From contig JBDHYB010000005.1 of the NCBI GenBank assembly GCA_039811145.1, forward strand, positions 12,299 to 76,298: 64,000 nucleotides of DNA, in the 5' to 3' direction. The notes below the pieces were generated by a model. It saw only the letters and a program-made list of their open reading frames with translations, was not told where the DNA came from and did no database searches. A program made the translations under genes and the position numbers. Shown piece by piece: positions 42,481 through 51,821 of this stretch. The stretch is from Chitinophagales bacterium (GTDB taxonomy: Bacteria; Bacteroidota; Bacteroidia; Chitinophagales; LD1). The first letter of the stretch is position 1; each line of letters starts with the position of its first letter.

Positions 42481-44517
42481 TTATTTGCTTACAACAAAGC
42501 GTAATGTGTTTACCACTTTGTTGCCATCTTTTACTGATACGAAGTAAACTCCGTTTTCGAAAGATGAAGTATTGATAGTGGTTCTGAAATTGCCACGGCC
42601 AAAGTTAGCAGGTGCAATGCTGTGTACGTTCTGGCCTAAAACGTTGAATACTTCAAAGCTAAGCTTAGAATCGTTGCCTACAGTATAGTCAACATTAACA
42701 ACGTTTGAAGCAGGGTTAGGATACAGGCTGATGTTACCTACGTTTGCAACTTCAGCAATACCGTTACCGCCATAAATTGAAGGCGTTGCATTTTGAGAAA
42801 CAGTGCCGTTTAATGGAACTTCGATAGAGTTCATTACTTCGTTCTTACCTGATTTTGCATTTGAATTATACTCGTGTACAAAAGCAACTAAATGAACGTG
42901 GCTGTCGTTCCAGCCAGCAGGTAAAGTATAGGTATATGTTTTGCTGTATTCAGCGCCGTCGCCCGTGGTGGTAGGTATAACGCCGGTTGAGCCCCATGCG
43001 CCGCCCATAAAGTTACGCACCAGGTGGTTATGAATGTAACCGCCAATGCCCCATGTACCGCTACCAAGGTTGGTAGTACCAACACCTAACCAAGGGTTAA
43101 GGGTAGTTGGTGAGGTGTAGTAATAGCTATGCTGGTCGTAAGAAGAACCACCGGTTACGCTGTCCTCTACAATGTAACAGTTGATACGGAAAGTGCCGTT
43201 AAGCGCAGCGTAGAATTTAGCAGTAACGGTTACGCTCAGTTCGCGGCTGGTGCTGTTGTATGTATTAGTGCAGGCTACAGTAACAGGAACAATGTCATCT
43301 TCTCTTGCGATAGTAGCATCTTTCCATGAATTAGCAGTAGTACCCATACCTTGTACGCCAATAGCCAGGTCATCTTCACCTTCGTAGTAAACGCGGTCGA
43401 TACAAGCTGTAGGAGCAGCAGAAGTAAAGGCAGCAGCCAATGTACTGTGCTCAGTTATAGTCATTACGTCTGTTCCGAAACCGGCATGTAAAGCAACCGG
43501 AATAGCTTTTGACCCTTCAGAAGCTTCAATTTCCTGAATACGGGTTGCACCACCAGGGCAGTAGCCACATGGCACAGTTGTAAATTCTTCAATCATCACG
43601 TTTTTATCAGGTATTGCGCTAAGGGCAATGATGTCACCCGCTTTTGCGTTATCAGCAGTGTTACCATCAGTACCACCGTTAGGGCCCGATGCGCTAACGT
43701 TAAGTGCATACAACTGTGCAGTTGGCATAGCAACCGCCTGCGTAAATTGGAAAGGATAAGTAGCAAAAGGCTGAATGTTTACACCGTTAAAGCTTTGAGA
43801 AACTGTACCACCGCCGTTTACGGTGTAGGTAAGGTCAAACGAAGTGATAGGAGTTGAACCCTGGTTGCTTACCACACCACTGATGAACTGATCGCTAAGG
43901 CCTACATATTTAGGCAGGTTCAATTTGTCAACAGCAATGTCTAAAGCAGCAGGCTCATAAATTTTAATATCATCAACAGCCCACCAGTAGTCGTAGTTGC
44001 CCTGGTAGTTAAACTTCAGGTAAACAGTTGCCTGGTTAGCTGCATATGCAGTAAGATCTACCGTAACAACTTCAGGATTATCTGAACTGTTAGTAACCTG
44101 GTAAACCTGTGTCCAGCTTGTACCATTGGTACTAATTGATACAGTTCCTGAACTTGAAGCATATTGTTGAAAGTATTGTTGGAATTGCAGAGCTACGTGA
44201 GAGTTTGCCGAGCAATCAATTGCGCCGGTAATCAAATCAGCATTTTCTGCCTTGTTATCGTTGCCAAGAGCATCTGAATCGAAAATGTAAAAACCATTGG
44301 CAGCCGTAGCTGAAGCAAAGCCATGCGCACTGGTTTTGCGCTGCCATGTTCCGCCACCTACGCCCGATTGGTCAACGTTTTGCCAACCAGAGGGAAGGCC
44401 CGCTGTACCGAAGTTTTGCGTGTAAATAGTGGTTTGCGCATCAAGTGCCAAAGCCGCTAACACTGCAATAGCAAGTGTAAATTTTTTCATGTCTTTTAAA
44501 TTGGGTTTAAAAATCAA
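42481..44517 (-). CDS. T9SS type A cargo: MAM/choice-of-anchor-J-like N-domain + Omp28-related region + Por secretion tail
   Basis: 678 aa with a signal peptide. It has GWQNVDQSGVGGGTWQ...WWAVDDIKIYE, then EEFTTVPCGYCPGG, and the C-terminus LYPNPASNVVNV...GVYFVSVKDGNKVVNTLRFVVSK. Confidence 0.7.
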   Translation of the reverse strand: MIFKPNLKDMKKFTLAIAVLAALALDAQTTIYTQNFGTAGLPSGWQNVDQSGVGGGTWQRKTSAHGFASATAANGFYIFDSDALGNDNKAENADLITGAIDCSANSHVALQFQQYFQQYASSSGTVSISTNGTSWTQVYQVTNSSDNPEVVTVDLTAYAANQATVYLKFNYQGNYDYWWAVDDIKIYEPAALDIAVDKLNLPKYVGLSDQFISGVVSNQGSTPITSFDLTYTVNGGGTVSQSFNGVNIQPFATYPFQFTQAVAMPTAQLYALNVSASGPNGGTDGNTADNAKAGDIIALSAIPDKNVMIEEFTTVPCGYCPGGATRIQEIEASEGSKAIPVALHAGFGTDVMTITEHSTLAAAFTSAAPTACIDRVYYEGEDDLAIGVQGMGTTANSWKDATIAREDDIVPVTVACTNTYNSTSRELSVTVTAKFYAALNGTFRINCYIVEDSVTGGSSYDQHSYYYTSPTTLNPWLGVGTTNLGSGTWGIGGYIHNHLVRNFMGGAWGSTGVIPTTTGDGAEYSKTYTYTLPAGWNDSHVHLVAFVHEYNSNAKSGKNEVMNSIEVPLNGTVSQNATPSIYGGNGIAEVANVGNISLYPNPASNVVNVDYTVGNDSKLSFEVFNVLGQNVHSIAPANFGRGNFRTTINTSSFENGVYFVSVKDGNKVVNTLRFVVSK

Positions 44518-44633: not shown

Positions 44634-45359
44634 ATGCGCCTTTTAGCTTTACCAATTGTATTATTCCTTGGTTTTATTGCACAAATTGCTCAGGCTCAAG
44701 CAGTAGTAGTTTCCCCTAACGACTCTGCTTCTGTATCGGCTACCATCTCTGATGAGTACACGCCTGCTGAGGTGCACATCCACGTTATTAACAATGCCAA
44801 CTTCCAACAGGCTATTAACTGGAAGATGGTGAACGTAAACCTGCCAAGCCAAAACTGGGAAGCCAAGCTTTGCGACAATGTTAACTGCTATGATTTATTG
44901 ATAAATGCCGGCCCTTATACCTCGGCTTACATCCCTGCACACGATTCAATGGATACCAAATTCCAGTTTACCGCGCATTGCATAGATGGCACCGCTGATT
45001 GTAACGTAGTTTTCTTTATTGATGGCGACAGCGCTAATACAGCTGTGGTGGTAAACTACAAGGCAACCATAACCAACAACTGTAATACAGGCATTAATGA
45101 AGTAGGCAATACCAGCCTGCACGTTTATCCTAACCCGGTTAAAAACAGTTTTACCGTAAAGGGTATTGAAACTGCCGGCAATCTGTCGTTTGAAGTTTAC
45201 GACCTTCAGGGCCGCCTTGCTAAATCAGATGTTATTTCAGCGTCTTCAAGCGAAATTGAAATATCAATTGCTACGCTTAGCCCGGGCGCATACATACTTA
45301 AAGCCATTAACCAAAATGGCAAAGTAGTTGCCACCTCGCAGCTTAACAAAATAGATTAA
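44634..45359 (+). CDS. small T9SS type A cargo, otherwise hypothetical
   Basis: 241 aa with a signal peptide. The C-terminus reads LHVYPNPVKNSFTV...PGAYILKAINQNGKVVATSQLNKID. Confidence 0.7.
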   Translation: MRLLALPIVLFLGFIAQIAQAQAVVVSPNDSASVSATISDEYTPAEVHIHVINNANFQQAINWKMVNVNLPSQNWEAKLCDNVNCYDLLINAGPYTSAYIPAHDSMDTKFQFTAHCIDGTADCNVVFFIDGDSANTAVVVNYKATITNNCNTGINEVGNTSLHVYPNPVKNSFTVKGIETAGNLSFEVYDLQGRLAKSDVISASSSEIEISIATLSPGAYILKAINQNGKVVATSQLNKID

Positions 45360-45379
45360 TCAATAAACTTACTTATAAG

Positions 45380-45406
45380 AAAAAGGCCCCGGAGGGCCTT
45401 TTTTTA
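45380..45406. terminator. bidirectional rho-independent terminator
   Basis: AAGGCCC / GGGCCTT stem with a CGGA loop, flanked by A5 and T7, between convergent genes. Confidence 0.75.
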
Positions 45407-45421
45407 TTTTGTGCATGGTGG

Positions 45422-46315
45422 TTAGTTGTTTCCTGTAACAAAGGCTTCGTAAGCCTGTTTTACAGCTTCGTTTTGCGGTTCCAGTTTTATAGCTTCAGTA
45501 AAACACTTCTCAGCGCGCGCATAAATACCTTTGTCTGTATAAAAGCCGGCCTCAATTACCTTGTTCATTCCTTTTGAAAAGGACAATGATTGCAATAGCT
45601 CTTTATGCTGAAAGGCGATACTCTTTTTCTCGCCTGCACTTGCCAGCGTAAAGCTTCCTGTAATGCAGTTATTTCTTGTTCTGGACTCCGCCTTCCAGTA
45701 ATACACCTGCCCCGCCGTAAAGCCTTTTACCACTACAGTTGTTGTTGTATCACGTATTTCGCGAACAACCATTTGCTTCTCCAATAAAGAATCAGCAAAC
45801 ACAATAAAGGTGTAATCTTTAACTGCCGAAAAATTTTTCCAGGTAAAAGTTACTGCGCTGTCCACTACTAACTCGCCGTAATGCGGTTGCAGGTAACAGC
45901 TTTCGCCATGGCCACGTGAAACACCGCCCAGGTTTTTAAGGTTACTTTTATAATCTTCTTCAACGTCGCTATGATGATGCGTTACCTGGCCTGCTACATA
46001 TTTTAAATAATAGGCGGCGAAGCTCTGCTCGTTTTGCGCACTCTTTAAACTTTCAAAATCAGTAACGGAATAACTACCGGGCTTTTTAAGGTAAACCACT
46101 TCGCCTTTAGGGCCGCTGTAAACTGCTTCGCTTTTATCTTCCAGCTTTACTGTTTCGTTAGCAGCAAGAGTGCTACCGATACGGTTTTGTTGTATCCACA
46201 ACTTCTTATCAGTAGATGTTTGCACCACCCCTTTAAAATAAACGAGTGTATACCGGCTTTGCGCCCCGCAAAAAGTAACGGCCAGTAAAAAAATGGCCGA
46301 AAGAAACCTTCTCAT
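45422..46315 (-). CDS. exported protein with a FecR-like N-terminal beta domain (tentative) and a TPR-like C-terminus
   Basis: 297 aa with a signal peptide. YFKGVVQTSTDKKLWIQQNRIGSTLAANETVKLEDKSEAVYSGPKGEVVYLKKPGSYSV resembles the FecR sensor domain pattern. Its start overlaps the CHASE2 stop (TAATG). Confidence 0.5.
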   Translation of the reverse strand: MRRFLSAIFLLAVTFCGAQSRYTLVYFKGVVQTSTDKKLWIQQNRIGSTLAANETVKLEDKSEAVYSGPKGEVVYLKKPGSYSVTDFESLKSAQNEQSFAAYYLKYVAGQVTHHHSDVEEDYKSNLKNLGGVSRGHGESCYLQPHYGELVVDSAVTFTWKNFSAVKDYTFIVFADSLLEKQMVVREIRDTTTTVVVKGFTAGQVYYWKAESRTRNNCITGSFTLASAGEKKSIAFQHKELLQSLSFSKGMNKVIEAGFYTDKGIYARAEKCFTEAIKLEPQNEAVKQAYEAFVTGNN

Positions 46316-47505
46316 TAGTGTTTAGCGTGTTCTAAAAAATATGATTTATAGCCGAACTTCTTATTCAGCCATTTTACAATCGCATCGTAGAAATATAGTA
46401 AATCCACCGAAAGTATCACCGGCACCGCAATAATATTTTCATCAAAAACCAATTGTGGGCCGTCCAGCAACTCCAGCTTTACAAAAACCAATACCACCAA
46501 AAATACCAACTGCATCAACTTGGCAAAAAGATGATACCAAATGTGCTTCTCTACAAAATAAAAGATGTGAAACACTATGGTGATATAGGTAAGCAAAACC
46601 GCGAAAAGAAAAACTATCCAATCCGGCACATGGTTTACATAGTTATCTGCCAGTATCATTTCAACCGTATTGGCATGTATAAACACGCCGCTCATGTCGG
46701 GTTTGCTGCGGCCGGCAAGTTGCTCATTAAAAGGGGTAAAATGCAAATCCTCCAGGTCGTTATCATTGGTCTTTCCAAGTATTACAATCTTACCGTTCAG
46801 CACGTCCAGTGCTGTATTGTTAGGCTGCACTTCATCAATGGCAATGGTGGGTATAAACTGCGCGCTGGTTTTGGTGTAGTTGATAAACTCCAGTTTATTA
46901 TCGCGCTCCTTAAGCTTTTCAAAATGCGTGGGGTCGTATTGCCGCACTATTTCCGCAGCAAAAGAGTTTACTTCCTTCCCTTCAATTTCTTCATGCGGCC
47001 TGAAATAGCGGATTGTTTTCTCGTATTCTCCTACAAAGTTTAAATACGCACTTTGCCCTAAGATACTCACGGCATTAAAGGATTGCTGCATACCCAACTC
47101 CTCACCTTCCTTTTTTTCAAAAAGATAGGTACCAAGCACCAGCTTTTTATTCTGCTGCAGGGCGTTAATCAAAATAGAATCCGTTTCAGCCTGCCCTGGT
47201 TTCTCAAACCAGGCATCAATTGCCAGCACCGCAGGGCGGTGTGCATTTATCACTTCAATTTCGCGGGCTATTTCAGCGCGGTTTCTTCCTATCTCCACAA
47301 TCACCACCTTGCTGTTTGCATCGGGCCGGGAGTGTTCCTTTCGGTGCTTGTACACCAGGTCGCCGTAATCAAAATCCGATAAAGCCTTTTCTATAGGGTC
47401 CAGCGCATGAAGGTTAACCACCGAGTACTTCAATGCCCAAACGCATAGAAAAACAAACAGGGTAGAAAATATAATATCCTTATTAAGGAAGTGCCTTTTG
47501 TGCAT
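46315..47505 (-). CDS. stand-alone CHASE2 domain membrane protein with no recognisable output domain
   Basis: 396 aa. It has an N-terminal TM helix, then VVIVEIGRN...RPAVLAIDAWFE...NGKIVILGKT...DLHFTPF...SGVFIHANTVEMIL (CHASE2 landmarks), then three C-terminal TM helices, and the protein ends there. Confidence 0.7.
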   Translation of the reverse strand: MHKRHFLNKDIIFSTLFVFLCVWALKYSVVNLHALDPIEKALSDFDYGDLVYKHRKEHSRPDANSKVVIVEIGRNRAEIAREIEVINAHRPAVLAIDAWFEKPGQAETDSILINALQQNKKLVLGTYLFEKKEGEELGMQQSFNAVSILGQSAYLNFVGEYEKTIRYFRPHEEIEGKEVNSFAAEIVRQYDPTHFEKLKERDNKLEFINYTKTSAQFIPTIAIDEVQPNNTALDVLNGKIVILGKTNDNDLEDLHFTPFNEQLAGRSKPDMSGVFIHANTVEMILADNYVNHVPDWIVFLFAVLLTYITIVFHIFYFVEKHIWYHLFAKLMQLVFLVVLVFVKLELLDGPQLVFDENIIAVPVILSVDLLYFYDAIVKWLNKKFGYKSYFLEHAKH

Positions 47506-47518
47506 CAGTTCTTAAGGT

Positions 47519-49018
47519 TCAATACCACAAGGTACTTTTAATTACGTTTTGATCGCCGGAAAGATAAACGCGAGTTGATTGCGGCTGCGATTGGGTATCA
47601 TATTTATCCGTATAAACCAGGTCGTAAAAACCTGCCATACCATAAAAGCGGATGCCGGTGCCAAGGTCGGCAGTAGTACCAACGCGCCAAACTTCTTCGC
47701 TCTGCTGGTTTATTTCGCCTACCCCAATAACCTTATATTCTGTTTTTGTTTCGTTTCTGCTGTTATCAGGTCGTATGGCCTCTTGCCTGTAATTGCGTCG
47801 GTCGTCGCGGTTGTTGTTATAACTGTAGGAAGGCATGCTTTTTTTAAAGGAAATATAAACTCCCCCGTCAGAAGCAGTAAGCTGGTAACTGGGGTCGCTC
47901 TGTATCATTGCCTTTGCTAAGTCACCCATCATGCTGGCCTGTAATTCCGTAGCCTTAATAGTTACGGTTTCATTAACTCCATTCTTAATAAGCACCAGGG
48001 TAACTGTAGTATTGGGTTTAATAGCCTCAAACTCGCCCAGTACCTCTTCCACATTGCGCACCTCCACTCCATTAACCTTAAATACGGTTGCGCCTATTTT
48101 ATCAGCAAGTGCCGATGCAGGAGAGTTGGTAAACACATTGCTTATTACCGGAGATTTATCGCGCTTGGTTAAGGTAGCTTTGCTGGTATAGTAGTCGGTA
48201 GTTACATCGTAATTTTGTGAAACCTCCAACCCTAAATACGCCCTGCGCGTTTTACCGTTGTTTGTCAAAAAATCATCAGTAAGCCTGCGACACACTTTCG
48301 ATTCCAATGCAAAATTAATTTGAGGCTGCCATAAGCTGCCTTTATCCTCCGGCCCAAAAGCTATATAGCTATTCATACCTACAACTTCACCCTTCTCATT
48401 TACCAGTGGGCCACCGCTATTACCCCATATTATAGTAGCCGTGTGCTGCACATAACCGTATTTGCCTGTTAAACCTTCGCGCACGCGGTTTTTGGCGCTC
48501 ACAATACCATCTGAAACAGTATAGGGATATTCTGCCAGGGGGTTGCCAATGGCATAAACACGCTGACCTATCGATGGTGGGTCGAGGGCATATTTAATAG
48601 TGGTAATTTCTGCACCCGGAGGTGTTACAAACTCCAAAAGGGCGTAATCATAAAACGAATCACCTCCTTTAAGTTTCGCTTCATACTTTTTGCCGGTTAT
48701 GCTATAAACATAAATAGCGCCGCTTTCGTTTGTGGCGTTTTCTATTACGTGCGCGTTAGTGCACACATATTTTTTACCGTTCACTTCTATAACGTAGCCC
48801 GAACCCTTGCACAAAGCATCGCTCAGGTCCAGCTTCTTTTCGTAAGCCACATCACTTTTACCCCGGTAGCCCAAAGGTTGTTTGGTAGCTTCTGCTTTAA
48901 ATACCCCTACTGAAATAACTGCTGAAAGGGCGTTATCCAGCATTGCTTCGGTGGTTTGCTGTGCATTTGTTATGGAAAAAACAAAAAGGCACATCCATAC
49001 TATCGTTGACTTTTTCAT
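47519..49018 (-). CDS. exported trypsin-like serine protease with a PDZ domain (S1C/HtrA-like) and an extra C-terminal domain
   Basis: Signal peptide and a catalytic triad context of CTNAHVIENA, DYALLEF and GNSGGPLV. A PDZ-like segment (YLGLEVSQ...VFKVNGVEVRNVEEV) is followed by about 120 aa of unknown tail. Confidence 0.8.
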   Translation of the reverse strand: MKKSTIVWMCLFVFSITNAQQTTEAMLDNALSAVISVGVFKAEATKQPLGYRGKSDVAYEKKLDLSDALCKGSGYVIEVNGKKYVCTNAHVIENATNESGAIYVYSITGKKYEAKLKGGDSFYDYALLEFVTPPGAEITTIKYALDPPSIGQRVYAIGNPLAEYPYTVSDGIVSAKNRVREGLTGKYGYVQHTATIIWGNSGGPLVNEKGEVVGMNSYIAFGPEDKGSLWQPQINFALESKVCRRLTDDFLTNNGKTRRAYLGLEVSQNYDVTTDYYTSKATLTKRDKSPVISNVFTNSPASALADKIGATVFKVNGVEVRNVEEVLGEFEAIKPNTTVTLVLIKNGVNETVTIKATELQASMMGDLAKAMIQSDPSYQLTASDGGVYISFKKSMPSYSYNNNRDDRRNYRQEAIRPDNSRNETKTEYKVIGVGEINQQSEEVWRVGTTADLGTGIRFYGMAGFYDLVYTDKYDTQSQPQSTRVYLSGDQNVIKSTLWY

Positions 49019-49210: not shown

Positions 49211-49627
49211 ATGAAAAAAGCAGCATTATTAACGGTGATGTCATTGCTACTGACAACCATCGTTTTCAACGCCAACGCACAGGATGGCTTGAGAAAAAAA
49301 GTTGAAATGAAATCGACCAAGGTTGCAAGCCGTGGCAGCAACCCGAACATCAAAGGCGATAAGCCTACCACTGATGAGGTTTCTAAAAAAGGAACATCAC
49401 GTGGCAGCGGTTATTACAACTGCTATATGTACCTGCATAACTATACCGGCTACACCATTGATGTTTACATTGATGGCTACTACGAAACAACTATAGGCGC
49501 TTATGGCGATGCTACTGTTGTTACAGGTAACGGCTGGACATCTATCTACGGCATTTCTGCCGGCAGAACTATGGAATGGAGCGGAACCGGCGACTGCCAA
49601 AGCTGGTACGACTTCTCTTTCTATTAG
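49211..49627 (+). CDS. small secreted protein (138 aa): basic disordered N-half and Tyr/Gly-rich beta C-half
   Basis: It has a signal peptide and its own strong terminator. I recognise no family. Confidence 0.55.
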   Translation: MKKAALLTVMSLLLTTIVFNANAQDGLRKKVEMKSTKVASRGSNPNIKGDKPTTDEVSKKGTSRGSGYYNCYMYLHNYTGYTIDVYIDGYYETTIGAYGDATVVTGNGWTSIYGISAGRTMEWSGTGDCQSWYDFSFY

Positions 49628-49645: not shown

Positions 49646-49680
49646 AAAAACGCCCTGCTGTCAGTGGGGCGTTTTTATTT
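49646..49680 (+). terminator. rho-independent terminator
   Basis: AAAAACGCCC / GGGCGTTTTT stem with an 11-nt loop, followed by TTTTTATTTT. Confidence 0.7.
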
Positions 49681-49820
49681 TATACCCACCACTATACATT
49701 TTTAATTAATGGATTGCCCCATCATACCAATTAGTAAGAAAAACATAAAATTGGGCGCCTGAATACTATTGATTTATGGAATTTTCGCCCACCTTTATCT
49801 TTCATTCCAAAAGCAGCATC

Positions 49821-51821
49821 ATGAAGAAAATACCCCTCCTTTTGTTTATCCTGTTTTCCTGTGCTTTACATGCTGAAAAGTATGCTTTGATTGTGGCCAT
49901 TGGCGACTACCCGGAACCGGGTAGAAACGGTTGGGGCAAAATATCTTCGGCCAACGATGTGCCTTTGGTTAAAACGGCTTTGGAAAACCAGGGGTTTCAA
50001 ACCGGTAACATTACGTTGCTGCAGGATGGCGCAGCCACCAAGGAAGGCATTAAAGCCGCCTTTGATAAGCTGATAAGCAAGGTGCAGCCCGGCGATATAG
50101 TTGTGGTACACTTCAGCAGCCATGGCGAGCAAATAGAGGATGATAACAACGACGAGGTAGATTACCTGGATGAGTGCATTGTGCCTTACGGCGCTGTTTA
50201 CTCGCCCGATAAAAACCGCTTTAAAGAATATGCCCCCGGTTATTTCCGCGATGATGAGTTTGGACAAAAAGTAACCTTACTGCGAAACAAACTAACTGCT
50301 AAAGGCGACTTGCTGGTATTGCTTGATGCCTGCCACTCAGGCACAGGAACACGCGGCCCTAAAGATGCCGTGTTAAAACCACGCGGAGCAATGGAGCCTA
50401 TGGTGAGCAACAAATTTGATGTAGCCAAGGTTTCGGCACCTGATAATAACGGGGTATTTAAGGATAATAACGGCGCTCAGTTAAGTAAGGATGCCGCCAC
50501 TTACGTGGTTATTTCAGGCGCACAGGCAAAGGAGTTTAATTACGAGTGTTACGACGATAACGGCAATGGGGTTGGCTCGCTGTCTTATGCCTTCAGCAAG
50601 TCGGTAGCTATGCTAAAAGATAAAACCACCTACCGCGGGCTGTTTGCCAATATTGAAAATATAATGCGCGACAAAGCCCCCCGTCAAAAGCCGGTGATGG
50701 AAGGTGACGGTGTGGACCGCCAACTATTTGGAGGAAACTTTGTTAGCCAGAAACCTTACTACACTATCAAAAAATGGATTTCGGATGATGAATTTGTATT
50801 GAACGCCGGAACTGTTTCGGGGCTTACTAAAGGCTCTATTGTTAGCCTTTACCCCGCCTCCACTACCGACCCTGCCGGCTTAACTGCCATGAACAAGGGC
50901 ACCGTTATTTCAGTAGATAATTTTATTGCCAACGTTAAATTAGATAAGCCTGATACGCTGGTAAACAAATACCCCTGGGTGTTTTTGACAGAGTTGGCTT
51001 ACCAGGAAAAACTGAAAATTGATGTACGCAATGTGAATGGCTCCCTAAAGCGCGTTCAGGAAGCCTTAAAAGATTTTAAACTACTTGAGTTTACTTCTGC
51101 CTGCGATGTTTACCTGGATACATTTGGCAGCACCAAAACATGGGCGCTTAAATACCCAAACACCGGCAGTGTATTTGCGGATAAAATTAGCATCGACGGT
51201 GCAGGAGAAATTGAGAATCTGAAAGGACTATTAAAACGTTTTGCACGTTACAGATACCTGCAGACTTTGGATTTTTCTGAAACTGACCTGAGCGCACAGG
51301 TGAACCTGGTATTTTTAAAAGCTGATGGACAGATTGATTACGACAAAATTAACCAGCGCACCAAAAACGGACGCCTTGAATTGAAGAAGGACGATGCGGT
51401 ATACCTGCAGGTTATAAACACCGGCAACAAGAAATTCTACATCAACATTGTAGATATACAGCCCGATGGAAAGATAAACCCCATACTGCCTAACAAAGGG
51501 CAAAGTATAAGGCCGGAGGATTGCATGGTAGCTAAGTACGATTCATTGGTATTGCGCAGCTATAAAATTACCATCGGGCCACCTTATGGCGAAGAGGTAT
51601 TTAAAGTATTTCTTTCAAAAGATTTGTTAGACCTGGAAGATGTACTAACCACCGAAAACAAGCCTGAGGGTAGCGCATCTCGCGGGGCGCTTAAAAGCCT
51701 GAATAAGGTTTTTGCCGATAGCGAGATTATGGAGAACGGAACCCGTGGCGGAACAGGTACCGTTAATACCGACCAGAACGGAACTATATTTAATGTAAAC
51801 TTTAATATAGTGAAGCAGTAA
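49821..51821 (+). CDS. exported caspase-like peptidase (C14) with a C-terminal DUF4384-like domain
   Basis: The ORF opens at 49776, but Met16 (49821) begins a typical signal peptide, MKKIPLLLFILFSCALHA. The catalytic dyad context is VVVHFSSHGEQ and LVLLDACHSGTG. The C-terminal YLQVINTGNKKFYINIVDIQPDGKINPILPN resembles DUF4384. Confidence 0.8.
   Translation: MKKIPLLLFILFSCALHAEKYALIVAIGDYPEPGRNGWGKISSANDVPLVKTALENQGFQTGNITLLQDGAATKEGIKAAFDKLISKVQPGDIVVVHFSSHGEQIEDDNNDEVDYLDECIVPYGAVYSPDKNRFKEYAPGYFRDDEFGQKVTLLRNKLTAKGDLLVLLDACHSGTGTRGPKDAVLKPRGAMEPMVSNKFDVAKVSAPDNNGVFKDNNGAQLSKDAATYVVISGAQAKEFNYECYDDNGNGVGSLSYAFSKSVAMLKDKTTYRGLFANIENIMRDKAPRQKPVMEGDGVDRQLFGGNFVSQKPYYTIKKWISDDEFVLNAGTVSGLTKGSIVSLYPASTTDPAGLTAMNKGTVISVDNFIANVKLDKPDTLVNKYPWVFLTELAYQEKLKIDVRNVNGSLKRVQEALKDFKLLEFTSACDVYLDTFGSTKTWALKYPNTGSVFADKISIDGAGEIENLKGLLKRFARYRYLQTLDFSETDLSAQVNLVFLKADGQIDYDKINQRTKNGRLELKKDDAVYLQVINTGNKKFYINIVDIQPDGKINPILPNKGQSIRPEDCMVAKYDSLVLRSYKITIGPPYGEEVFKVFLSKDLLDLEDVLTTENKPEGSASRGALKSLNKVFADSEIMENGTRGGTGTVNTDQNGTIFNVNFNIVKQ

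Follow-up and report, generated by a model that had tools for sequence, protein, structure and literature searches.

In the present study, we analyzed a window of 64,000 nucleotides (nt) from a Chitinophagales bacterium (contig JBDHYB010000005.1 of assembly GCA_039811145.1), in which three adjacent minus-strand genes encode an HtrA-like exported serine protease, a membrane protein with a CHASE2 sensor domain and no output domain, and an exported partner protein, hereafter called p3. This trio is the distal half of a five-gene, wholly extracytoplasmic module, which also comprises genes for a small secreted protein and an exported metacaspase-like protease of the C14 family. The conserved unit within the module is the pair of the CHASE2 protein and p3 because this pair occurs in distant lineages, where most of the sampled loci lack a nearby protease; linkage to proteases thus characterizes the clade of the window. 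The reading that we favor, to which we give somewhat less than an even chance, is that the pair represents a receptor or scaffold whose read-out here is extracytoplasmic proteolysis at R-G sites.

The genes for the HtrA-like (S1C) protease (47519–49018, minus strand, 499 amino acids (aa)), the stand-alone CHASE2 membrane protein (46315–47505, minus strand, 396 aa), and p3 (45422–46315, minus strand, 297 aa) are tightly packed. The TGA of the protease gene (47519–47521) is separated from the ATG of the CHASE2 gene (47505) by a 13-nt gap, and the CHASE2 stop and the p3 start overlap by 1 nt as TAATG at 46315; this arrangement, which had been described in the original prediction made from the nucleotide sequence, was confirmed from the open reading frames (ORFs) and the sequence. 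A GC-rich hairpin flanked by A and T runs (45378–45405, not assigned to a strand, detected by a consensus scan only) sits between the convergent genes for p3 and a cargo protein of the type IX secretion system (T9SS) and appears to be the terminator-like end of the protease-CHASE2-p3 unit. The C14 caspase homolog (49776–51821, plus strand), which carries a DUF4384 domain, is encoded across the divergent upstream region from the trio, with the gene for the small secreted protein (49211–49627, plus strand, 138 aa) in between and a terminator-like hairpin (49646–49676, plus strand, also from a consensus scan only) between these two plus-strand genes. The closest relatives of the window are metagenome-assembled genomes (MAGs) of Chitinophagales, the middle proteins of which are 96% and 84% identical to that of the window.

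Regarding this middle protein, the CHASE2 profile PF05226 was matched with an E-value of 2.6e-22 and 80.1 bits, against a cut-off of 26.3, over profile positions 53–252 of 257. Hydropathy placed transmembrane (TM) segments at residues 7–25, 297–315, 326–344, and 352–370, and the AlphaFold2 (AF2) model (pLDDT 87, pTM 0.85) contains helices at 9–27, 295–319, 321–348, and 357–384. TM1 is followed by an alpha/beta CHASE2 domain in the periplasm and then by three further TM helices (1+3), after which the protein closes with a short basic tail. An N-in, C-in orientation is suggested by the basic residues near its two ends. The protein stops approximately 12–25 residues past TM4 and has no output domain. 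The identification of a full CHASE2 domain in a protein that ends after its C-terminal TM helices was, thus, borne out by profile score, hydropathy, and structural model. All 43 database homologs are 361–453 aa in length with CHASE2 as the sole Pfam domain, and lengths were also uniform in 80 genome loci, with homologs of about 390–430 aa. Because of this uniform length and CHASE2-only content, the missing output is a family trait rather than the result of a frameshift, and a frameshifted output domain in the CHASE2 gene, a concern that had been raised with the prediction, was ruled out. The most conserved segment comprises TM4 and the tail (mean column identity 0.72 vs. 0.52 in the periplasmic domain), and W323, K329, Q332, and D368 are invariant. 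The protein also has a conserved surface rich in Asp (D44, D49, D97, D253, and D270). A Foldseek search of the model against the PDB returned no significant match (best E 0.55); subtilisins among the top matches were unusable (E >= 0.55, probability <= 0.23, rmsd ~15 Å).

The N-terminal half of p3 had been regarded as FecR-like, and this part of the prediction was not confirmed. With the FecR profile PF04773, 38 aligned family members and 10 other diverse representatives yielded no match at E<=1, a set of 66 diverse representatives yielded none at E<=0.1, and 20 members that were checked one by one yielded none at E<=1; the profile did not match the window protein. A comparison of the p3 family profile with Escherichia coli FecR by hhalign yielded a probability of 0.4%, and phmmer with E. 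coli FecR found no match in any ORF of the window or the loci. As Pfam hmmscan, hhalign, and phmmer were all negative, a FecR identity was rejected at the sequence level. The predicted export and tetratricopeptide repeats (TPRs) of this protein were upheld by a signal-like N-terminus on hydropathy and, for the TPR end, by profile searches and the AF2 model. In this model (pLDDT 77), a signal peptide is followed by a six-stranded beta domain (22–90), a disordered linker (103–139, pLDDT below 50), an Ig-like sandwich (141–224), and a TPR-like helical end (227–296). The top Foldseek matches were the MtxA C-terminal domain structures 4z29_B and 4z29_A (E 3.8e-6 and 6e-6, probability 1.00), with a TM-score to 4Z29, which consists of an Ig-like and a TPR part, of 0.59 normalized on the target. 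The MtxA_C profile PF22121 did not match p3 of the window and matched 3 of the 66 family members weakly (E 0.004, 17.8 bits vs. a cut-off of 27); sub-threshold Pfam matches in some members placed MtxA_C on the TPR part and DUF7354 on the N-terminal beta domain. Based on the same order of parts, the fold match to 4Z29, and weak Pfam matches that point in the same direction, p3 is an MtxA-like periplasmic protein.

The most conserved element of p3 is the near-invariant motif G-[GA]-V-[SE]-R-[GSA], which lies within the predicted disordered linker and reads GGVSRG in the window (residues 130–135, codons 45911–45928, minus strand). Its arginine, R134, was present in all 38 aligned members and in 65 of the 66 representatives. 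The Ig-like domain (profile ~117–177) also matches 4–24 tandem repeats in many giant proteins of 600–6200 aa, and is therefore one of a widespread class of repeat domains that extends beyond this family. DUF928 showed weak sub-threshold matches to the Ig-like domain in some family members and is retained as a lead; a cluster of CHASE2 and DUF928 genes has been reported in Nostoc punctiforme (PMC5587647).

The conservation of the neighborhood was investigated by a scan of one genome per species, which gave 524 stretches with relatives. The counts for genome loci in the present study refer to the best 80 of these 524, which were analyzed by ORF calling, with approximate ORF starts, and iterated HMMs seeded with the window proteins; the 80 loci are mutually related, and counts are, thus, of non-independent events. 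The CHASE2 gene was directly followed by p3 on the same strand in 78 loci, with a median gap of 3 nt and a gap of 15 nt or less in 55 of the 78. A C14 caspase-family gene was found within ~6 kb in 69 of the 80, in several orders and on both strands, while the HtrA-like protease was present in 16 and a homolog of the 138-aa secreted protein in 21, with duplicated copies in some. Gene orders included caspase>CHASE2>p3, a divergent caspase, and small protein>protease>caspase>CHASE2>p3, and the taxa included Chitinophagales, Sphingobacteriales, Bacteroidales, Cytophagales-type bacteria, and others. Independent gene calls with precomputed Pfam labels agreed with this picture, namely, C14/DUF4384-CHASE2-259 aa in Hymenobacter and C14-TPR, C14, and Trypsin genes near CHASE2-257 aa in another MAG. 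Therefore, although the original prediction centered on the trio and mentioned the caspase in an aside, only the adjacency of CHASE2 and p3 stood as a conserved feature of that trio, and the caspase, on the strength of 69 loci against 16 for the HtrA-like enzyme, is the main protease partner.

An all-vs.-all clustering of neighbors in the 80 loci revealed no recurrent cytoplasmic signaling gene (sigma/anti-sigma, kinase, or regulator), and no anti-sigma substrate, sigma factor, or site-2 protease was present among the recurrent neighbors or in the window. Among the window genes near the module, there was no sigma/anti-sigma pair, kinase, or response regulator. The other recurrent neighbor families (RlmH, rhomboid, TilS, and ETF) reflect lineage synteny. 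More distant p3 relatives were sought by a profile search of 1.8 billion representatives, from the 1029 matches of which (E<=1e-3) a small sample was taken; all six of the sampled divergent p3 genes were directly downstream of a stand-alone CHASE2 gene (387–402 aa).

The window caspase matched Peptidase_C14 with 68 bits (cut-off 21.4), contains H116 (in HG) and C186 (in DACHSG), and has a signal-like N-terminus, in agreement with the predicted exported caspase homolog on the other side of the shared upstream region. Its longest ORF begins at ATG 49776 (MEFSPTFIFHSKSSI...); the signal peptide-like sequence MKKIPLLLFILFSCALHA starts at M16 (49821), which is the likelier start judging from the sequence, and FSC in the N-terminus could be a lipoprotein box. 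The caspases of the loci were split into type A (n = 38, 660–780 aa, often with DUF4384, signature D-x-C-H-S-G), which includes the window protein, the nearest solved relatives of which are Yca1, AtMC4, and AtMC9, and type B (n = 29, ~1100 aa, caspase and TPR, usually divergent). Metacaspases as a class cleave after Arg/Lys (PMC7475262), and membership in this class together with conserved R-G sites suggests that the window caspase may have this specificity and process itself. In type A, an Arg at +8 from the catalytic Cys is followed by Gly in 34 of 38, and R-G occurs within the last 90 residues in 37 of 38; [ST]RG was found in this region in 23 of 38, vs. 8 of 249 background ORFs. The corresponding sites in the window caspase are TRG at 192–194 and further [ST]RG at 635 and 656.

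The 138-aa small protein, which matches no known family, begins with a signal peptide, continues with a part of low complexity, and ends in a beta-rich domain that contains Cys. Its two conserved K/A-[ST]-R-G sites (codons 49328–49336 and 49397–49405) are aligned within the low-complexity N-terminal part in 22 of 24 family members, and the density of [ST]RG is 9.0 per 1000 aa in the family vs. 0.42 in background ORFs. One R-G motif, therefore, recurs in three proteins of the module, namely, the caspase, p3, and the small protein. The latter and the HtrA-like protease both co-occur with type-A caspases. The idea that the aromatic C-terminus of the small protein is a PDZ ligand, like the OMP peptides on DegS, was dropped because this C-terminus is not conserved in its family. 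Signal-like N-termini, which were judged by hydropathy and by eye, were found in 63 of 75 caspases, 16 of 17 HtrA-like proteases, 23 of 23 small proteins, and 76 of 79 p3 proteins; taken together with the periplasmic CHASE2 domain, this indicates that the whole module faces outward.

The HtrA-like protease matched Trypsin_2 at 3.4e-27 (96 bits, cut-off 27.6) and PDZ_2 at 2e-5, the 25.2 bits of the latter being just under the cut-off of 27. Its residues 69–361 were aligned by phmmer with DegP, DegS, and DegQ at ~1e-27 over a span covering their PDZ1, its N-terminus is signal-like on hydropathy, and its catalytic triad, H90/D124/S201, is kept in 16 homologs, all of which corresponds to the S1C-type protease with intact His, Asp, and Ser that had been predicted. 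The best NCBIfam match was TIGR02037 (DegP/HtrA subfamily), with 168 bits against a cut-off of 416, and DegS scored 119 against 408; since these values are far below the equivalog and subfamily cut-offs, the enzyme is HtrA-like but not an orthologue of DegP, DegQ, or DegS. The additional C-terminal region is slightly longer than had been estimated (~130 vs. ~120 aa), and its end, R.YLSG..Q.TLWY, is conserved in the 16 homologs. PDZ domains bind aromatic C-termini such as the TLWY-COOH in which this family ends (window 47519–47700), and self-binding or oligomerization of the protease via its own tail is conceivable.

The structure of the genes, their domains, the topology, the signals for export, the conservation of the linkage, and the motifs described above are observations, from which we infer who may bind or cleave whom, and in which direction control would run, as follows. 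The invariant core is the four-TM, output-less CHASE2 protein and its translationally coupled MtxA-like periplasmic partner; the pair would most likely serve as a receptor or scaffold that is anchored in the membrane and faces the periplasm. Exported proteases, chiefly the metacaspase-like C14 enzyme, have joined this core in the clade of the window, and approximately one fifth of the loci, including the window, also have the HtrA-like PDZ enzyme and the small secreted protein with its conserved [ST]-R-G sites. The read-out would then be proteolysis outside the cytoplasm in place of a second messenger: a presumably Arg/Lys-specific metacaspase would process itself at the R-G sites that follow the catalytic Cys and at those of its tail, would cleave the small secreted protein, and may also cut the partner within its GGVSR|G linker or compete for this linker, with the HtrA-like enzyme as a putative accessory.

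Several results weigh against this proteolytic read-out. No protease was found near the pair in four of five informative distant Bacteroidota loci, the fifth having a caspase, or in 11 of the 80 close loci; because the pair exists in these loci, its basic function cannot need proteases, and the invariant Arg of p3 cannot solely be a caspase site. The extracytoplasmic proteolytic module of the original prediction is, thus, retained as a clade-level tie of CHASE2 to exported proteases, and a sensor-gated protease is at most a clade-specific use of a pair that occurs in distant lineages without one. Loci with type-B caspases lack the RG signature in the caspase (0 of 29), yet the p3 motif is kept. 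Moreover, TM4 and the cytoplasmic tail are the best conserved parts of the CHASE2 protein, which may point to a role within the membrane or across it. Export signals were read from hydropathy alone, and Foldseek found no solved relative of the CHASE2 fold in the PDB to guide a model of ligand binding. The maintenance of the p3 Arg motif both without proteases and with type-B caspases suggests that the motif is tied to the relationship between CHASE2 and its partner. In an unlikely but more specific version of the mechanism, the G-[GA]-V-[SE]-R-[GSA] linker peptide would itself be the ligand or docking element of CHASE2, as a form of tethered-peptide sensing, and the exported Arg-specific metacaspase would write or erase the signal by cutting the partner, the small protein, and itself at R|G.

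The conservation of TM4, the tail, and the four invariant residues speaks for the main rival explanation, in which the pair would perform conventional trans-membrane sensor signaling through the TM bundle and tail to an unlinked cytoplasmic or membrane partner, and which we consider possible but doubtful. The proteases would then be placed upstream and make or destroy the ligand, for example, by cutting the linker of the partner or releasing a peptide, and the retention of the pair without proteases in distant lineages is consistent with this. Characterized CHASE2 proteins always feed cytoplasmic cyclases, kinases, or GGDEF domains (PMC5192318, PMC9239204, PMC13001267), and the CHASE2 cyclases of Sinorhizobium meliloti answer to a signal of a protein nature (PMC13001267). 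However, no cytoplasmic signaling gene recurs in the 80 neighborhoods, the tail comprises only ~12–25 residues, and the literature searched contains no precedent for an output-less CHASE2 protein that signals in trans.

Two further explanations are less well supported than proteolytic read-out and trans-membrane signaling. Caspase-CHASE2 fusions in bacterial conflict systems and cyanobacterial orthocaspases (PMC8195603, PMC3501461, PMC2853523), and a genomic island of Psychroflexus torquis that combines secreted metacaspases with a CHASE2 protein (PMC3914696), raise the rather improbable scenario of a conflict, cell-death, or pro-toxin system, in which the small protein is a pro-toxin or pro-signal freed by the exported metacaspase. 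Its N-terminal part would keep it inactive, and activation would be licensed by the CHASE2 protein and its partner on sensing kin, prey, or damage to the envelope. This scenario is consistent with the two conserved RG sites of the small protein, which lie in a segment resembling a pro-region ahead of the domain with Cys, and with the duplicated copies in some loci; on the other hand, the small protein is present in only 21 of the 80 loci, no immunity-like gene was recognized, the window context is of a housekeeping nature and not an island, and the matches from PADLOC were confined to generic protease and caspase domains, with none for CHASE2, p3, or the small protein. As no defense-system-specific PADLOC model was matched, a known anti-phage defense system was rejected. 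Co-location without a shared mechanism, in which ordinary envelope or nutritional proteases are merely co-regulated or syntenic with an unrelated pair, appears to be the least probable explanation. The HtrA-like protease is restricted to 16 of the 80 loci, Bacteroidota encode many secreted proteases, with astacin-like, M23, M28, and C25 genes near some loci, and all-vs.-all clustering identified some conserved neighbors as plain housekeeping synteny. Nevertheless, C14 genes are rare in genomes and yet lie within ~6 kb in 69 of the 80 loci in differing gene orders, orientations, and taxonomic orders, the genes of the window are tightly coupled by the 13-nt gap and 1-nt overlap, and the R-G motif is common to three module proteins, all of which argue against coincidence.

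The closest known counterpart of p3 is MtxA of magnetotactic Alphaproteobacteria (structure 4Z29). MtxA is periplasmic, has a length of 313 aa, and is composed of a signal peptide, a beta region (25–110), a flexible trypsin-sensitive linker, an Ig-like domain (142–226), and TPRs (227–313); its gene is followed by that for a CHASE2 adenylate cyclase, and its structure has been solved without a function or mutant phenotype (PMC4439547). MtxA and p3 share a length of ~300 aa, the four-part layout, a conserved Trp in the Ig-like domain (W161 in MtxA and W159 in p3), and a gene that adjoins that of a CHASE2 membrane protein, although their sequence similarity is below Pfam thresholds. The gene order is reversed, with mtxA preceding the CHASE2 gene and p3 following it, and while the magnetotactic CHASE2 protein carries an adenylate cyclase output with no proteases reported, that of the window is output-less and linked to proteases. 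In Burkholderia, the BiofilmReg system comprises a LysM-FecR protein and a CHASE2 kinase (PMC5192318), and in Campylobacterota, a CHASE2 cyclase occurs with a FecR protein of the outer membrane and with a TPR protein (PMC9239204). The neighborhoods of CHASE2 and FecR-domain genes in other phyla that had been mentioned in the original prediction are, thus, documented, including TPR periplasmic proteins (PMC5192318, PMC9239204, PMC4439547). These systems resemble the window in that a CHASE2 membrane protein and an exported accessory with protein-interaction domains form a conserved operon; however, the receptors in these systems end in a kinase or cyclase output and the partners are matched by the FecR profile PF04773, neither of which applies to the window pair.

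C14 protease and CHASE2 domains are also brought together in caspase-CHASE2 fusions, such as a Trichodesmium orthocaspase (PMC3501461, PMC2853523) and EACC2-caspase-CHASE2 proteins (PMC8195603). In the fusions, the caspase precedes TM1 and is a predicted cytoplasmic output, with the membrane between it and CHASE2, whereas the window encodes the caspase as a protein of its own, which has a signal peptide and shares the side of the CHASE2 domain. Genomic island 15 of P. torquis (35 kb) has been annotated, without further analysis, with WD40-metacaspases, a LytTR regulator, and a CHASE2 protein (PMC3914696). It is similar, by description, in that several metacaspases, which are putatively secreted, are drawn alongside a CHASE2 protein in a gene cluster of a member of Bacteroidota, although no partner protein, motif, or mechanism was described. 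A combination of a periplasmic PDZ protease, here of the HtrA type, a TPR partner, and a membrane protein also recalls the regulated envelope proteolysis by PDZ proteases that is exemplified by DegS/RseA and by Prc with the TPR lipoprotein NlpI. Unlike DegS-RseA, the window has no linked anti-sigma factor, sigma factor, or site-2 protease, and its protease is far below the DegS/DegP/DegQ equivalog cut-offs and optional (16 of 80 loci).

The surroundings of the module in the window consist of ordinary housekeeping and T9SS-cargo genes and do not form an island. Two T9SS cargo genes adjoin it, one (42481–44517, minus strand) encoding a protein with choice-of-anchor J, Omp28-like, and Por_Secre_tail domains and the other (44634–45359, plus strand) a 241-aa Por_Secre_tail protein, and they are kept beside the module only in its closest relatives (L001 and L002). 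A sigma-70 promoter scan returned matches only at the shuffle expectation, and no Bacteroidetes-type TAnnTTTG promoter motif was found in the intergenic regions.

Variations were also observed in individual loci. In one locus (L028:9079–12219), a second type-A caspase gene (772 aa) immediately precedes a p3-like gene (273 aa) without an intervening CHASE2 gene, and a complete caspase-CHASE2-p3 set lies a few kb away. This arrangement hints at a direct relationship between caspase and p3; the label of the record, Methylophilus, is probably due to a binning error. A rhomboid gene lies 1–3 kb downstream of the pair in 23 Chitinophagaceae loci (e.g., L015:5803–6468), together with RlmH, TilS, and ETF, and a different rhomboid is near the pair in one unrelated metagenome contig (L085:10302–11198). 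Since the 23 loci all belong to one lineage with the same RlmH/TilS/ETF neighbors, the rhomboid was treated as probable synteny, although the proximity of an intramembrane protease to a four-TM protein is of note. Ferruginibacter-type loci have an astacin-like metalloprotease gene upstream (L009:2216–3412, minus strand, and eight other loci) and a conserved ~318-aa protein with no Pfam domain directly downstream of p3 (L009:8034–8975 and 17 others). In a divergent locus (L091:8939–12020), the genes after p3 encode an unannotated protein of 486 aa, a C14 protein with a short length of 307 aa, and a protein of 227 aa, and a gene with an FGE-sulfatase domain, which is a common partner of caspases in bacteria, lies opposite.

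CHASE2 proteins with FecR or TPR partners, MtxA beside a CHASE2 cyclase, and caspase-CHASE2 fusions have already been published. The literature searched contains no report of an output-less CHASE2 protein and an MtxA-like protein as a conserved unit, of the systematic linkage of this pair to exported metacaspases, of the HtrA-like and small-protein accessories, or of the shared R-G motif. No defined CHASE2 ligand and no solved CHASE2 structure were found in these searches, and to our knowledge, exported bacterial metacaspases have no known substrates. The module unites CHASE2, an exported metacaspase, and an MtxA-like protein without cytoplasmic outputs in many Bacteroidota from soil and water, and offers a six-residue motif, three candidate substrates, and two proteases for experiments. 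If the proteolytic read-out is correct, a sensor domain family would have been re-used for the control of proteolysis outside the cytoplasm rather than for second messengers. If the linker peptide is indeed the tethered ligand, it would represent the first defined ligand class for CHASE2, which has been an orphan sensor domain for more than 20 years, and the R-G sites would provide the first defined substrate set for the exported metacaspases of bacteria.

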